A DNA stretch of 64,000 nucleotides from a virus. Its lineage: Duplodnaviria; Heunggongvirae; Uroviricota; Caudoviricetes. Below, in pieces: positions 10,074 through 61,911 of the stretch. Position numbers and translations under genes: made by a program. The notes beneath the pieces were generated by a model. The model was not told where the DNA came from. It saw only the letters and a list, made by a program, of their open reading frames with translations, and did not search any database. The stretch spans positions 1 through 64,000 of IMG/VR virus record IMGVR_UViG_3300047444_000299; one strand, 5' to 3'. Within the stretch, counting starts at the first letter, position 1; every line of letters begins with the position of its first letter.

Positions 10074-10457
10074 ATGACGCATTCGGCAGTGTTGTTGGTG
10101 ACTCGAATTCTCCAGAATCGAAACCTTCTGGAATGTAGCGGCGTAGCCAAATTCCGGGAAGACGATGAAGGGTATGTTTCGTGGATTGAATTCCCGAAAC
10201 ATAAAATTCGGATGTACGAAAAGGCAGACCAGAAGCATGGGATTGTGTTTCGATTCGAATTCTATGAATCGAGGAAACCATTCTTCACTGTCGAAGACTA
10301 CCTGCGCAACGGTTCGGAACAGGTGATTTACCTGAAAAAGTCCGAGCTGTTGCAGGCTCCGAAAATGAATAAAATCATTTCGGACATGAACACGGTTGTT
10401 CAGGAAACAATCAATTCCATCAATCATATCGGACGCTATCTGGCGGGTGCTGCATGA
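10074..10457 (+). CDS. hypothetical protein
   Basis: 127 aa ORF contiguous with neighbours. Confidence 0.45.
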   Translation: MTHSAVLLVTRILQNRNLLECSGVAKFREDDEGYVSWIEFPKHKIRMYEKADQKHGIVFRFEFYESRKPFFTVEDYLRNGSEQVIYLKKSELLQAPKMNKIISDMNTVVQETINSINHIGRYLAGAA

Positions 10458-37190: not shown

Positions 37191-37200
37191 TTTGATACAA

Positions 37201-37226
37201 AGCCTCGGGAAACCGGGGCTTTTTTA
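37201..37226 (+). terminator. rho-independent terminator (family A: AGCCTCGGGAAACCGGGGCTTTTT)
   Basis: 8-bp stem with GAAA tetraloop + T-tract; identical at 47794 and 53927. Confidence 0.8.
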
Positions 37227-37238
37227 TTTCGAAAGTGT

Positions 37239-37266
37239 TTGACATAGAATAGAATCGTGGTAGAAT
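37239..37266 (+). promoter_or_regulatory. sigma70-like promoter TTGACA-N16-TAGAAT
   Basis: near-consensus; shared module with 28388-28432. Confidence 0.65.
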
Positions 37267-42588: not shown

Positions 42589-42947
42589 TGGAAAGAACAC
42601 AAATCGCCCTAGCGGATAAAATCCGTGAATGGGAATTGAGCGCTGGGGAAAGCTTTACCGACTATTACATGCACGATTCTGTAAAGGATGTATCGTGGGC
42701 GTTTTGGTTGCTGGGGAAAGGTTTCACCGAACGAGCCAATGAATTGATCGATTTGATTCAAGCCGGTGAAACATGCATCGATCAAGAGTTGCTGTATGAG
42801 ATTTATCCACAAGATATCACCGAGGGTGAATCTAGTTGGGATTCGGATATACATTCCGCGAATATCTGTTTGTGGGCTGAATTTCTGGTAGCGTCTGATC
42901 GGTATTGGAAAGACATTACCGAATGGTTCGCAGATCAAAATGATTGA
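42585..42947 (+). CDS. hypothetical acidic protein
   Basis: 120 aa. Confidence 0.45.
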   Translation: MMERTQIALADKIREWELSAGESFTDYYMHDSVKDVSWAFWLLGKGFTERANELIDLIQAGETCIDQELLYEIYPQDITEGESSWDSDIHSANICLWAEFLVASDRYWKDITEWFADQND

Positions 42948-43413
42948 AATCGAACGCAAATTCCTAATTGATGCAACCATGTTGCCGGGATGCTTAACCC
43001 CAACCCGAATCGCCCAAGGCTATTTGAATCAAGATCCTGACAAGACCGTCAGGATTCGGATCGCCGGGGATAAAGGATTCATTACCATCAAAGGTAAATC
43101 CAGCGACAACGGCCTATCCCGGTACGAATGGGAAAAGGAAATTGATCTAAACGACGCCAAAGACTTGTTGGGAATGTGTTCCAATATCATCGACAAGTCC
43201 CGGTATCATATGATTCATCAAGGCAAGCTCTGGGAAATTGATGTATTCCACGGCTTGAACGAAGGATTGGTTGTCGCAGAAATTGAGTTGACTTCCGAAA
43301 CAGAATTGTTTAATTTACCGGAATGGATTACCCAAGAGGTTACGGGCAACCCAGATTACTACAATTCGAATTTAGCTGTATGTCCCTTTAAGTGGTGGTT
43401 TGAGTATGAATAA
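42940..43413 (+). CDS. CYTH-domain protein (triphosphate tunnel metalloenzyme; CyaB/ThTPase-like)
   Basis: N-terminal MIEIERKFLI (ExExK signature), later VAEIEL. Confidence 0.6.
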   Translation: MIEIERKFLIDATMLPGCLTPTRIAQGYLNQDPDKTVRIRIAGDKGFITIKGKSSDNGLSRYEWEKEIDLNDAKDLLGMCSNIIDKSRYHMIHQGKLWEIDVFHGLNEGLVVAEIELTSETELFNLPEWITQEVTGNPDYYNSNLAVCPFKWWFEYE

Positions 43414-45656: not shown

Positions 45657-45814
45657 TCAAAATCGAAGACTGGATTCTAGAAGACATCCGAAGACTCCGT
45701 AAAATCCCCCAGCCATCCAGAAGCTCCGACGAGCATCAATACTTAAAGCTGTTGATGGAATACAACAATAAGGTTGAAGAATTCAATATCAGGCTTCGGC
45801 GGTTGAAGAAATGA
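45653..45814 (+). CDS. hypothetical small protein
   Basis: 53 aa. Confidence 0.3.
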   Translation: MIKIEDWILEDIRRLRKIPQPSRSSDEHQYLKLLMEYNNKVEEFNIRLRRLKK

Positions 45815-46374
45815 AGAAAGTGGCTGGTATCGGTATATACGAAAAGGGTAAGTACCCTGCATCAATTACATTGAATGGTGAAACCACCCAAACCAAGGCG
45901 TATAAGGATTGGGTCAATCTATGTAGTTTCTGTGGGTCTGAATCCTACCTGACCCAGAGTCCGTCGTATGTCGGTAAAATCCTTGACCAGCAATGGATCA
46001 AATTCCAAGACTTCGCGGAATGGCATTCAGAGAATCATAGGGAAGGGTGGGTATTATCCACCAGTTGTTCCAATTTGATTGGCCCTGATACCAGCTTTTT
46101 TGTCCCTAGGGAAGTGATGCAATTCATCAATCCCCGAAAGAAACCTATGGTCGTGACCAAAACCCATGTCAAGTTGTCCATGACCCTACAAGGGGTTGAA
46201 TGTACATTCGGGAAATATCGAAACATCCCGGACGCCATGATGGTCTATAGCGGACTGTTTCTGGTAGAGATTACCAGATTGATTAAAGAATATGCCCTAT
46301 CTGAATGGTTGGGCGGCAAGTTGAAAACATTAGCAAACACCACACCGAATATCCGGTATGCGAAAAATATCTAA
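45811..46374 (+). CDS. homing-endonuclease-like protein (paralog of 11933..12550 core, without AP2)
   Basis: GIYEKGKY...YKDW...SYVG...FQDFAEW...IGPDTSFFVPREV shared with the rnlA-pseT intergenic gene. Confidence 0.45.
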   Translation: MKKVAGIGIYEKGKYPASITLNGETTQTKAYKDWVNLCSFCGSESYLTQSPSYVGKILDQQWIKFQDFAEWHSENHREGWVLSTSCSNLIGPDTSFFVPREVMQFINPRKKPMVVTKTHVKLSMTLQGVECTFGKYRNIPDAMMVYSGLFLVEITRLIKEYALSEWLGGKLKTLANTTPNIRYAKNI

Positions 46375-46388
46375 AGAGAATTGAAAGA

Positions 46389-46865
46389 ATGAACAAAAAG
46401 AACATCGCTGTCGCCCTTTGCTTCGAAAACATCAGTACCTTGATGAACGGCCAATTTGAATCAATGGAAGAAGTATTGAAGGATGTCAAGGACGCTATTG
46501 CTGGTTTGGATGAACCCGCCAATGGTGATTTAGGCGAGCTGACATTGGTGATGATTTCCGCCCAAGATGATGAAACCCAAGATACCATCGATGAAGCCAA
46601 TCTACTGGGGCAAATCCTTGAGCATTGGTTCGGCCCATCCTTGGCTAAACTCGCCATGTCCGGTAATGTCGAAGTTGGTATGACGGTGTATCTGTATAAT
46701 CCGGGTCAGGCTGGAATCGTCGGACGGGTGATTGACTTTGATACCGAAACCTGTGACGAACCTTATATTGGGGTTGAATGGTTGAATGAAGACGGGGATG
46801 TTATCGCTGGTAGTGCTGGTGGCCCGGAAATGTTTACATCGGTATTTGATTACCCTATGCTGTAA
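46389..46865 (+). CDS. hypothetical acidic protein
   Basis: 158 aa. Confidence 0.45.
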   Translation: MNKKNIAVALCFENISTLMNGQFESMEEVLKDVKDAIAGLDEPANGDLGELTLVMISAQDDETQDTIDEANLLGQILEHWFGPSLAKLAMSGNVEVGMTVYLYNPGQAGIVGRVIDFDTETCDEPYIGVEWLNEDGDVIAGSAGGPEMFTSVFDYPML

Positions 46866-46907
46866 AAATGTAAAAGATGTAGGGGAAAAGTTTTAGACCA
46901 GAATTTT

Positions 46908-46987
46908 TTGGTGGGAAATTTTTTTGGAATCGACATTGGGGAAACTTTTTGTCGATTTCTATATGGTGGGAAATTTTTTTGGAATCG
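46908..46987. repeat. 23-bp direct repeat GGTGGGAAATTTTTTTGGAATCG x2
   Basis: two identical copies about 55 bp apart in an ORF-free region. Confidence 0.7.
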
Positions 46988-47058
46988 GGTAGGGTGTCTA
47001 ATAACCTGCCCAAAACCACTAAACTGCCAAGGAATCCATAGGTATGGAACCTTAAATT

Positions 47059-47107
47059 CACCCCCTCCCCACCCCCGGCACCCCCACCACACCACTAGCC
47101 CCTCCCC
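47059..47107. repeat. C-tract cluster (CCCCCTCCCCACCCCCGGCACCCCCACCACACCACTAGCCCCTCCCC); G4-prone on complement
   Basis: six or more C-runs of 4-5 within 49 nt. Confidence 0.7.
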
Positions 47108-47384
47108 ATTCGGAATAGAACTAGTATCCACCACTCACTAGTCTACCATATCAATTCCCAATAGTTCAACCCTATTCTACTACCATTCATCCGTTCCCGA
47201 ATCGATACACAATAGACTCCATTCCTTTGCATCAATTCCTAACCCATTGCATCAAACTCCCTAGTAGTCTGTAAGCCTCTGTAGTCGCGTATAACCCGTG
47301 ATAGAATCAAATCCACCTAATGCCCTAGGCTATACCATATCGAGTCCTATAGATCATTGTAGTTCGATTGAATCATATTAGAAT

Positions 47385-47472
47385 TGATTGCATCAAATGC
47401 TTGACACACTCACTGTATGGTATAGAATGAGCATACACCAACCGAAACCCTGAACCATATAGGAGTTACACA
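47385..47472 (+). promoter_or_regulatory. promoter TTGACA-N16-TAGAAT + conserved leader (CACCAACCGAAAC..AGGAG)
   Basis: near-consensus hexamers, leader shared with downstream cassettes. Confidence 0.6.
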
Positions 47473-47778
47473 ATGTCTAAACGTACTGAATTCGAACTAC
47501 TCGAAGCGCATCTAACCCTACAACTGAAAAAGCATGTCGAAGCCAAGACTACCGGGAAACCATCAAAGAAAGGTTCTAAGGTAGCTCGGGACTTTATCCA
47601 AGTGTCTATGTTGTGTGGTAAGTGGTCATTAGATGGGATGCATTACATTCCGCTTGTGGTTGATGTTGAGGCGATTGATAACGCTATAGCCGAAATGGAA
47701 GCAAAGAAAGCTGCTAGGGCATTGGGTTATCAGGACCGAGATATCAAGGTCGAAGGGTTTGTAAAGGTTAGTAAGTAA
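47473..47778 (+). CDS. Lys-rich small basic protein (possible DNA/RNA-binding)
   Basis: 101 aa, strong promoter + SD. Confidence 0.5.
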   Translation: MSKRTEFELLEAHLTLQLKKHVEAKTTGKPSKKGSKVARDFIQVSMLCGKWSLDGMHYIPLVVDVEAIDNAIAEMEAKKAARALGYQDRDIKVEGFVKVSK

Positions 47779-47793
47779 CCTAAACCATTGATA

Positions 47794-47818
47794 AGCCTCG
47801 GGAAACCGGGGCTTTTTG
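47794..47818 (+). terminator. rho-independent terminator (family A)
   Basis: AGCCTCGGGAAACCGGGGCT + TTTTT. Confidence 0.8.
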
Positions 47819-48870: not shown

Positions 48871-49439
48871 ATAATTGCTGAATTTGATGGAATTCTAGTG
48901 AATTATTCTGAATGGTTCCGGGGCTGATTAGTGAATTCTGCTGTAATTTGATGCTATTGCGGGATTTGATGCATTTATTATTGCATCAAAATATTGAACA
49001 CTCACTAGGCAGCCCGAACGAATTCCCCATTTTTCTGTAACGTTTTCGATACACCGTAACGTTTTCAATACACCACATAAATTTTCGATCAATTCAATTC
49101 CCCAACCATTTCCGAACCATTCCTAAGCTGATTCTATTACCTTCCAACCATTCCAAATCTATATCTATTTTCCTGATATTCTCCCCTAAAAATATGCATA
49201 ATACCAATATACATTATGGATTTAATCAATCCCAATATATGGGATGATTTTGATTGATTTAGGCTTGCATTCTGTTCTGAATCTGCTAGGCTATTGTCTA
49301 TTCACTAATGCTTTTCTAACCTTCTAATGGTTATATGACTACTCACTTGATGGCTGGATTGATTGTTATCGGGTTGTTGCTATCCCTAACCGGATCAATG
49401 GTTTGTGGTTATGGTGATATGCCTAGGCATTCCCTTTGC

Positions 49440-50030
49440 TGGATTATTTGGTTTGATATCTCTATAGGTATGTTGGGGGTATCCCTGCTATTGCTTATTG
49501 GTTTGATGATGTTCTAGGGGTTTGATGATGTTCTATATGGTTTGGATGATATCATTGGTTTGTGATGGTTTGATGATCTATGCGGTTCAATGCATGGTTA
49601 AACATTCGTTTTGGCAGGTGGTGGTTTTTGATTCATCCTTATTGATTAGTGGTATTGCAATGTTTGTGGTATTGTGCTATGGGTTTAAATCTCTGCGGCT
49701 TGTTCGGTTGAATAGGGGTTGATATTATGTTTCGGTTGATTAATGCTTTAGAGGTTTGCGGCTGGTTTGGATTGATTTGTGTTTCTGGTTTGATTTTGGA
49801 ATCATTCCGGGTTATCATTTGATTCTACTGATTGAGGGGATTTGATCATGGTTACTATGATTCTAGGCTTCGCGGTATTGCTGGGGTTTTTGTTTCACTA
49901 TTGCCCGGTTGATACTGCTAAGGGTTGATATTCTGCTAGGTTTGGGGCGATTCTGGTGGAATATTAGCATTTAGGGTTTGCATTTAATTTTGAATTGGTT
50001 TATTGTTTGATTTTGATTTAATCACTTGAC
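49440..50030. repeat. iteron-like degenerate GGTTTGAT / GGTTGAT repeat array
   Basis: more than 20 occurrences of GGTTTGAT-like words, including tandem GGTTTGATGATGTTCTA x2. Confidence 0.6.
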
Positions 50031-50845: not shown

Positions 50846-50870
50846 AAGCCCCTGATTCTAGGGGCTTTTT
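50846..50870 (+). terminator. rho-independent terminator (family C: AGCCCCTGATTCTAGGGGCTTTTT)
   Basis: identical at 58604, 60314 (1 mismatch) and 61886. Confidence 0.8.
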
Positions 50871-53525: not shown

Positions 53526-53549
53526 ATCAAATCCTAATGAACCCGGCGA

Positions 53550-53577
53550 AAGTCGGGTTTATTTTTGTCTGTACTAG
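53550..53577 (+). terminator. rho-independent terminator (family B)
   Basis: ACCCGGCGAAAGTCGGGT + T-tract. Confidence 0.75.
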
Positions 53578-55878: not shown

Positions 55879-55891
55879 CACCAACCCAATA

Positions 55892-55919
55892 GACCCGGCG
55901 AAAGTCGGGTTTATTTTTG
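55892..55919 (+). terminator. rho-independent terminator (family B)
   Basis: ACCCGGCGAAAGTCGGGT + T-tract. Confidence 0.75.
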
Positions 55920-58588: not shown

Positions 58589-58603
58589 CCCGGATTCAAT
58601 CAA

Positions 58604-58630
58604 AGCCCCTGATTCTAGGGGCTTTTTTAT
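58604..58630 (+). terminator. rho-independent terminator (family C)
   Basis: AGCCCCTGATTCTAGGGGCT + TTTTTT. Confidence 0.8.
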
Positions 58631-60309: not shown

Positions 60310-60313
60310 GCTA

Positions 60314-60339
60314 AGCCCCTGATCCTAGGGGCTTTTTAT
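60314..60339 (+). terminator. rho-independent terminator (family C variant)
   Basis: AGCCCCTGATCCTAGGGGCT + TTTTT. Confidence 0.8.
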
Positions 60340-61880: not shown

Positions 61881-61885
61881 ACGAA

Positions 61886-61911
61886 AGCCCCTGATTCTAG
61901 GGGCTTTTTCT
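61886..61911 (+). terminator. rho-independent terminator (family C)
   Basis: AGCCCCTGATTCTAGGGGCT + TTTTT. Confidence 0.8.

Follow-up and report, generated by a model that had tools for sequence, protein, structure and literature searches.

A single-copy noncoding element conserved among T4-like phages and its tentative reading as a Rho-type terminator or insulator

Introduction

Why would a gene-dense phage leave some 600 bp free of genes, and what would such a gap be for? The question is raised by positions 46866-47472 in a stretch of 64,000 nt of viral DNA, IMG/VR record IMGVR_UViG_3300047444_000299 (positions 1 to 64,000), which at its full length is called the window here. The window belongs to a T4-like phage and carries genes for a gp41-type helicase, a primase, both topoisomerase II subunits, two RNA ligases and NAMPT. 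All of its plausible genes lie on the + strand, and no tRNA was found in it. Nowhere else in the window are plausible + strand genes as far apart as across 46866-47472, and it is unusual for a gene-dense T4-like phage to carry a large noncoding element that is conserved.

The original prediction for this region, made from the letters of the window, was that of an atypical noncoding locus, possibly a replication origin, a packaging or recombination site or a noncoding RNA locus. We find that the stretch without open reading frames (ORFs) is a real single-copy noncoding element that is conserved in at least 14 related T4-like phages. Thus, the view of an atypical and probably functional noncoding locus is borne out by 14 relatives, whereas the evidence does not single out any of the proposed functions. 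The reading that we favour, tentatively and with considerable doubt, is that of a Rho-type terminator or insulator that closes a transcription unit of about 9.6 kb and carries conserved accessory modules that this reading leaves unexplained.

Results and discussion

Conservation and copy number

Homologues of the proteins encoded beside the element are almost absent among 5.8 billion sequences. The relatives' contigs were reached through the few such matches and through homologues of a CYTH-domain protein encoded upstream of the element (window 42940-43413), which has thousands of homologues in bacteria and phages and whose gene is found in all related loci, always 1-3.5 kb before the element. 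Two IMG/VR contigs with the element were found by a degenerate two-gap pattern, and the copies in the Pseudomonas phages Astolliot and Milchi by blastn with the copy of a related locus, L004, as the query, whereas the window copy as a query in distant-mode blastn gave no match. Astolliot and Milchi are the closest sequenced isolates to the window (73% DNA identity in the topoisomerase gene); they are T4-like myoviruses that have been argued to be misfiled under Otagovirus, and the paper describing Milchi does not mention the element (10.1101/2024.10.22.619576). INPHARED gave no match for the region or for both flanking ORFs (megablast, tblastn), IMG/VR none in exact or near-exact motif scans or in scans with the flanking proteins, and the JGI metagenome none for a degenerate DNA pattern or the downstream protein. 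In two other samples, contigs with window proteins match the window at 100% identity and therefore provide no comparative information. In the collections searched, the element had no match outside this phage clade, and nothing like it was found in Rfam or the literature searched.

Conservation in relatives had been proposed as a check, and the element is indeed kept in the same order and position in 14 distinct, diverged genomes. In every carrier, it follows a long array of small + strand ORFs and precedes genes with their own promoters. A sequence profile of 13 copies detects the element once per locus, also in L016, on whose copy it was not trained (E 2e-12), and no further core copies in the 64-kb window; additional core copies elsewhere were rejected on this ground. 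The conserved order from left to right is the A/T-tract repeat array, a variable hairpin, CCACTAAAC, a second short hairpin, the C-tract with CCCTCCCC units and a G-poor extension. In the window, these parts are as follows.

46879-46990, + strand: left module, an array of A/T-tract units (A3-5 T5-7 GG/GA, e.g. GGGAAATTTTTTTGGAATCG)
46980-47018, + strand: hairpin H1, with outer TGG/CCA, an inner stem GGGTAGG/CCTGCCC and an A/U-rich loop; it includes a G-rich box
47016-47024, + strand: CCACTAAAC, the most conserved block, of which ACTAAA is invariant in all 14 sequences
47029-47053, + strand: short hairpin H2 (AAGG-AA-TCCATA-GG-TATGGA-A-CCTT)
47059-47108, + strand: C-tract, comprising six C4-5 runs as well as two CCCTCCCC-type units, and strongly G-quadruplex (G4)-prone on the - strand
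47018-47260, + strand (the sense of transcription): unstructured, rut-like tract with C>G and depleted in G, made up of the C-tract and a less conserved extension

The degree of conservation of the core is about that seen in core genes. The element keeps its order, its spacing and its key blocks although the topoisomerase gene is only 73% identical in DNA between genomes, which argues for direct selection. The genes beside the element vary among relatives: the window's upstream ORF recurs in L008 only, and the gene calls after the element differ in L008 and L011-L013. Around the element, L011 (9444-10643) and L017 (10830-11919) have ORF-free gaps of about 1.1-1.2 kb, twice that of the window, and L017 has many more A/T-tract units.

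Coding potential

The claim that no ORF of 60 aa or more lies in the region on either strand does not hold if GTG and TTG starts are counted, as this yields ORFs of 68-94 aa.

46850-47134, - strand: mechanical ORF of 94 aa (GTG/TTG start counted)
46855-47061, - strand: mechanical ORF of 68 aa (GTG/TTG start counted)
46908-47141, + strand: mechanical ORF of 77 aa (GTG/TTG start counted)

The noncoding reading behind the claim did stand. No reading frame over the element is conserved in 12 relatives, the open frame shifting register or being closed, and stop codons are present in all frames across relatives. The original prediction had named translated small ORFs covering the region as its own counter-evidence; among the frames of the 12 relatives, none is conserved, and a hidden small gene was rejected for this reason. 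Neither flanking ORF has a PHROG match, and in the Astolliot record nothing is annotated over the element. The region is best read as noncoding, going by the comparison of frames.

A strand-specific, C-rich and unstructured tract

The most striking property of the element lies in its right half. In each of the 12 genomes examined, the four 60-nt bins right of the anchor contain 15-32 C and 1-13 G each, and the 180 nt to its left are C-poor with G>C. The C-rich, G-poor part measures about 240-300 nt in these genomes. The tract of the window has 19-28 C and 3-8 G per 60 nt, and the excess of C over G (+70 over the 240 nt of 47001-47240, z 6.5) is the window maximum. The G-poor extension cannot be aligned between clades, and the C>G composition holds there all the same. 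The stretch downstream of the C-tract, which had been described as AT-rich, turned out to be not especially so (GC about 0.40); it is G-poor and C-rich instead.

RNA made from this tract is predicted to fold very little. Over 47071-47191, 120-nt RNA stretches have minimum free energies (MFE) of -6.4 to -12.3 kcal/mol, compared with a window mean of -28.5 (sd 6.4). An MFE of -12 or above is found in only 0.8% of the window's RNA stretches, which places the tract among the least structured 1%, and RNAalifold predicts no pairs in it.

The C-tract is separated from H2 by a short A/T spacer, and every relative has a C-run tract with one to three CCCTCC(CC) units. The six C4-5 runs reported earlier were found again (within 47061-47108); in 300 dinucleotide shuffles, at most four such runs occurred per 50 nt. 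Prediction by G4Hunter, which had been suggested as a check, gave -2.92 over 47047-47112, with an absolute value of 1.6 for the next best site in the 64 kb. The - strand carries at least four G4-5 runs with loops of 1-4 nt, a pattern by which a G-quadruplex is predicted. In its - strand G4-5 runs and its G4Hunter magnitude of 2.92, the tract thus resembles G-quadruplex and i-motif tracts, the structure being a predicted one. Cytosines in T4-like phages may be modified. No function of a G-quadruplex in T4-like phages turned up in the literature searched.

Two contigs are broken inside the C-tract: L006 starts there at its position 1, and L016 stops there at position 10283, the end of the 182,615-bp contig RCUN01000039.1. 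This suggests coverage loss or heterogeneity in the length of the C-runs, and trouble in sequencing or assembly is the simplest explanation of the two breaks because at least nine contigs run through the C-tract. Contigs of at least four relatives end in cassette repeats, and so does, at window 49149, the JGI contig of the window's own phage. The ends that fall 2-4.5 kb downstream, in relatives' contigs and in the Astolliot and Milchi records, are due to these dispersed repeats. A genome end or terminus at the element was rejected, since at least nine contigs run through it and the nearby ends fall in dispersed repeats. The C-tract and the neighbouring cassette repeats matter for metagenomics as well, in that they break assemblies of these phages.

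The runner-up in the window on both C-G excess and lack of structure is a second tract at about 48991-49240, 2 kb downstream of the element, which likewise follows a gene without a canonical terminator. C>G tracts thus look like a class of element and not a unique oddity. The second tract lies in an ORF-free stretch (48871-49334) that is G-poor and gives nearly unfoldable RNA (MFE 0 to -5 per 120 nt). Within this stretch are a tandem 19-mer, GTAACGTTTTCGATACACC (49037, 49056), CCAACCATTCC-type repeats and a decayed copy of the promoter at 47388, TTGCATCAAAATATTGAACACTCACTAGG (48981). A gap of similar size is found after the homologous 76-aa gene in L008 and L011-L013. The adjoining positions 49335-50030 are T- and G-rich (AT skew -0.18 for 48-50 kb), opposite in composition to both C>G tracts, and contain small ORFs and repeats such as GGTTTGATGATGTTCTA, with two exact copies at 49500 and 49519.

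Position on the predicted operon map

At its right end, the region has the promoter-like site that had been noted there as a strong promoter, a TTGACA-16-TAGAAT sequence with an 11/12 match (47401-47428), which is part of a cassette.

47388-47428, + strand: promoter cassette of TTGCATCAA, ATGC and TTGACA-16-TAGAAT, opening the unit with the gene 47473-47778 and the terminator 47793-47814
47227-47235 and 47247-47255, + strand: two orphan TTGCATCAA motifs, the 9-mer of the promoter cassette, here without a good -10

Upstream, the last strong promoter-like site is found at 37239-37266 (11/12), beside a canonical terminator at 37199-37222, and the 9.6 kb after 37239 hold no canonical + strand terminator with a GC stem and a T-run. 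Nor did the scan find an intrinsic terminator within 46866-47400. A relaxed search in the window gave one A/U-rich hairpin adjoining a T-run, which ends at about 46973 (combined dG -12 with hairpin B). Between 47.4 and 64 kb, at least 11 canonical terminators, several of them near-identical, stand beside many TTGACA promoters. The promoter-like site upstream of the AT-rich part (46833-46861) reaches only 9/12, and no counterpart of it was found on reading L004 and Astolliot.

A possible Rho-type terminator or insulator

How can these properties be brought together? We infer that the + strand is transcribed through the element and that Rho acts at it. RNA polymerase would come from the long small-gene array, with its last strong promoter at 37239-37266, pass the last ORF (which ends at 46865) and transcribe a leader rich in U-tracts and hairpins. 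It would next produce about 250-300 nt of untranslated, C-rich, G-poor and essentially unfoldable RNA. Such RNA would constitute a Rho utilization (rut) site and would be loaded by the host termination factor Rho, and transcription would be released ahead of the strong promoter at 47401, insulating the downstream promoter-terminator cassettes. In several relatives, the hairpin GGCCG..CGGCC plus ATTTTTT in the left module would act first, with Rho as a back-up.

Several lines of evidence point in this direction. Ribosomes would not shield the RNA, because no frame is conserved and stops are present in all frames. The tract has the properties by which rut sites are predicted, namely at least 70-80 nt with C well above G, little RNA structure and no translation. 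That a strand-specific, G-depleted C>G tract is common to every relative despite diverged sequence argues for a role at the level of the transcript, that is, Rho loading and termination. The predicted operon map, with no canonical terminator over the 9.6 kb before the element and many promoters and terminators after it, is in line with this reading, as is the + strand preference of hairpin stems with G-U pairs. The Rho reading is favoured because it is the only one that explains why composition, and not sequence, is conserved on one strand over about 300 nt; it also accounts for the similar tract nearby.

The element resembles known Rho terminators, such as lambda tR1 and the T4 immediate-early/delayed-early sites, in that a putative untranslated sense RNA, C-rich, G-poor and unstructured by prediction, follows a predicted operon. 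It differs from them in that its sequence blocks are conserved across the clade and in that it is present in single copy, and from typical rut sites in being much longer and far more C-rich (six C4-5 runs). The conserved single-stranded block and small hairpin just upstream of the C-rich tract recall the boxA/boxB/rut arrangement of lambda, though this is a resemblance only. Lambda tR1 has the layout rutA-boxB-rutB next to boxA. However, CCACTAAAC does not match lambda boxA (CGCTCTTTA), and the H2 loop shows no conserved pentaloop of the boxB type. Rho-dependent sites are known in T4-type phages, their presence between the early transcription units of T4 being well established; rut sites lack structure and are frequently rich in C (PMC2988021). 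If the Rho reading is right, the element is an unusually elaborate version of a known type of signal.

There are, however, several arguments against this reading. The phage uses compact canonical intrinsic terminators everywhere else, and a conserved multi-part element of 600 bp seems to be more than termination needs. The core (H1, CCACTAAAC, H2 and the first C-runs) is conserved in sequence and present in single copy, whereas rut sites are usually poorly conserved. The swap of the G-box for a C-box in L014 and L017 hints at a strand-independent constraint at the DNA level. Conservation of CCACTAAAC, the two hairpins and the A/T-tract array is left unexplained by a terminator model. The conserved core and the A/T-tract array may modulate the terminator, or they may serve a second function.

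The left module and the possibility of a replication origin

A second possibility is that the element is a replication origin or another unique cis-acting DNA site, with AT-rich repeats that bind a protein or unwind, an inverted repeat and GC-rich blocks as structural parts, and a G4-prone tract or passing transcription that aids initiation. We regard this as unlikely, though it has a number of points in its favour. The element is single copy per locus and multi-part, and its position is kept while the flanking genes change. The flip of the G-box to a C-box is what would be expected of a double-stranded DNA feature. Moreover, the left module, which starts with a conserved GTAGnGnAAAA motif and is G>C and C-poor, has 66% A+T and is within the least stable 1.2-1.4% of the window's duplex stretches. 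It is nevertheless not the most easily melted DNA of the window, an idea that was rejected since other places are less stable.

The repeats of the left module bear on this possibility as well.

46883-46932 and 46938-46987, + strand: 55-nt tandem duplication, the copies being 78% identical, with the 23-mers as their conserved ends
46926-46959, + strand: predicted hairpin GGAATCGACA...TGTCGATTTC between the two repeat copies (ViennaRNA folds, RNAalifold consensus)

The two exact 23-mers of the original prediction are present, at 46910 and 46965, 2 nt to the right of where they had been placed. The exact copies of GGTGGGAAATTTTTTTGGAATCG occupy 46910-46932 and 46965-46987, there is no other with up to three mismatches, and none is expected from shuffles. 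The long duplication is restricted to the subclade of the window (window, L008, L013, L019 and L011) and absent from L004, L007, L014, Astolliot and Milchi; the hairpin at 46926-46959 is likewise specific to this subclade. The A/T-tract unit itself occurs in all 14 relatives, in 3 to about 9 copies spaced 13-35 nt apart, both numbers varying. As judged from this distribution, the 23-mer repeat is a lineage-specific duplication of the general A/T-tract unit. A variable copy number is known from iterons, which again would suit an origin. Evenly spaced iterons, however, were rejected because the units lie 13-35 nt apart in variable copy number.

Further to the right, L004, Astolliot and Milchi have the hairpin GGCCG..CGGCC followed by ATTTTTT (dG about -10), which looks like an intrinsic terminator of moderate strength; weaker versions are found in L016, L014, L007 and L011, and the one in the window is weak. 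Next in order come TTGGAAT or TTGGATT and the G-rich box, which is swapped for a C-rich box in L014 and L017. Pairing of the upstream G-box with the C-tract was rejected, since these two have a C-box instead.

Comparison with T4 cuts both ways. Its origins are intergenic and promoter-linked, and the element likewise lies between genes and close to promoters, one part of it being AT-rich and carrying repeats. OriF and oriG consist of a middle promoter and an A+T-rich unwinding element and are primed by an R-loop, while oriE has direct repeats (PMC3016281). Since T4 origins share no common motif, a lack of similarity does not exclude an origin (PMC3016281). In contrast to oriF and oriG, no conserved promoter was found directly upstream of the AT-rich part of the element on reading L004 and Astolliot, and the irregular spacing of its repeats (13-35 nt) differs from the evenly spaced 12-nt repeats of oriE (PMC3016281). 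Nothing in the T4 origins described so far corresponds to the strand-specific C>G tract, and an origin leaves the G depletion on one strand, over 300 nt of non-conserved sequence, unexplained. The locus is not at a switch of the transcription strand, and less stable duplex exists elsewhere in the window. Finally, the sense transcript is C-rich, a polarity that, going by the stability of RNA-DNA hybrids, is unfavourable for a persistent R-loop.

The core and the possibility of a noncoding RNA

It is also conceivable, though decidedly unlikely in our view, that the element encodes a noncoding RNA, made from its own promoter or processed from the 3' end of the operon, with a structured 5' domain (H1, CUAAAC and H2) and a trans-acting C-rich tail. 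For instance, the tail could pair through its CCCUCCCC units with sequences that are G-rich or resemble Shine-Dalgarno sites, or it could bind to a protein of the host. Such a role would be in line with the conservation of the core, which is about that of core genes, and with the occurrence of CCCTCC(CC) units one to three times in each relative.

The hairpins of the core bear on this possibility. Pairing in H1 is retained with differing arms (GTGGGG/CCCCAC, GTCGGG/CCCGAC, GTCGAT/ATCGAC), and several H1 stems contain G-U pairs, which favour the + strand; the mean z of its stability is -1.8 over 13 sequences, with the + strand more stable than the - strand in 10 of the 13. H2, however, is barely more stable than shuffled sequences (mean z -0.86). 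Its GG..CC..GG..CC skeleton is fixed while several sequence types exist, and its paired G and C residues are invariant and hence provide no evidence of covariation. RNAalifold gives no net covariation support, the covariation term being positive (+4.5), and the core alignment of 13 sequences has no consensus pairs. The whole window has no match in Rfam 15 at the gathering score, and the window and Astolliot copies yield only inconsistent, chance-level matches at E up to 10; a known RNA family was rejected on this basis. The types of H2 are out of step with the flanks, L008 being nearest to the window in its flanks yet carrying an H2 of the L004 type, and this distribution suggests recombination within the element.

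As to how such an RNA would start, ACTAAAC is preceded in all relatives, at a distance of 13-19 nt, by a -10-like A/T hexamer. However, the spacing between the -35-like TTGGAA and this hexamer, 14 to 20, is too variable for a single promoter, and a sigma-70 promoter formed by TTGGAA (-35) and the H1 loop (-10) was rejected for this reason. A start at ACTAAAC would moreover leave H1 out of the RNA. No terminator hairpin is present that would define or stabilise the 3' end, and pairing of the anti-Shine-Dalgarno type would also strike the AGGAG ribosome-binding sites of the phage itself. Readings of CCACTAAAC, GGCAC and GTAGCG as DnaA-box, IHF-site, sigma-54 or ops-like sequences were discarded, as they have too many mismatches when judged by eye.

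The possibility of a recombination landmark or a regulated Rho switch

Very unlikely, to our mind, is a passive DNA landmark, built partly from pieces of promoter cassettes, that serves as a recombination anchor or insertion hot spot or is simply a tolerated G4-prone tract. The flanking genes do differ among relatives, and just upstream of the element the window, Milchi and L015 carry genes for HNH or AP2 endonucleases. The H2 types do not follow the flanks in their distribution, A5T4-5 motifs and TTGCATCAA are found ahead of ordinary promoters as well, and PeSL regulatory cassettes have been proposed as substrates of recombination in T4-like phages (PMC4122927). Yet a landmark does not account for order, spacing and key blocks that are kept across a divergence to 73% identity in the topoisomerase gene, nor for the constraint on composition in non-conserved sequence, and the element exists in one copy only, unlike the dispersed cassettes.

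Hardly to be expected is a regulated Rho switch, in which a nut-like CCACUAAAC box and the hairpins would decide on termination in the adjacent super-rut tract, or a decoy, in which abundant poly(C)-like RNA, made only once polymerase reaches the end of the 9.6-kb operon, would titrate host Rho and thereby time delayed-early read-through across the genome; if true, either would offer a specific sequence from which to approach the old question of how Rho-dependent termination is overcome in T4-type phages (PMC2988021).

If the element is a Rho-loading boundary with control modules, it would provide a defined and deletable site for studying how early transcription is partitioned and timed, and it is present in two cultured phages, Milchi and Astolliot. 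If it is an origin, it would be a rare sequence-conserved candidate in the T4-like clade, where origins are notoriously unconserved.

Promoter-terminator cassettes and endonuclease genes around the element

The right end of the element (47388-47428) is a typical cassette promoter and sits at the edge of a cassette zone. Cassettes of the PeSL type in T4-like hyperplastic regions were reportedly described by Arbiol in 2010. They combine a compact stem-loop terminator with a sigma-70-type early promoter and are dispersed in the hyperplastic regions (PMC4122927). The element differs from them in being about 10 times longer and single copy, in having no canonical GC stem-loop and in containing blocks that are absent from cassettes. 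Between 47780 and 64000, near-identical, PeSL-like composites of terminator and promoter are dense and each flank one or two small ORFs; they match the description of PeSL cassettes (PMC4122927). Examples of the terminators are 50846-50867, 58602-58625, 60313-60334 and 61883-61908; 37199-37222 and 47793-47814; and 53536-53563 and 55888-55915.

The 9-mer TTGCATCAA has 63 exact copies in the window (27 on the + and 36 on the - strand), and 158 with at most one mismatch, compared with 30 expected. After 47 kb, it has fixed places in the promoter cassettes, preceding the -35 by 4 nt or a TATACT/CATAAT -10 by 8 nt (e.g., 47388-47396), and it is often paired at a distance of 18-20 nt (53656/53675, 54054/54073, 56061/56079, 61926/61944 and 63191/63209, all on the + strand). 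In the part before 47 kb, most copies are on the - strand and apparently close to gene junctions (e.g., 26525 and 42968; also 57861 on the - strand). Judging by this placement, TTGCATCAA may be the binding site of a phage or host transcription factor, analogous to the MotA box.

Genes for endonucleases of the HNH type (PHROG 953) or AP2 type are found near the element at 45811-46374 in the window, 4286-4999 in L010 and 10882-11481 in L015, and the site upstream of the element may be a hot spot for the insertion of homing endonucleases. The HNH ORF of the window shares 70 nt with the ORF that follows it.

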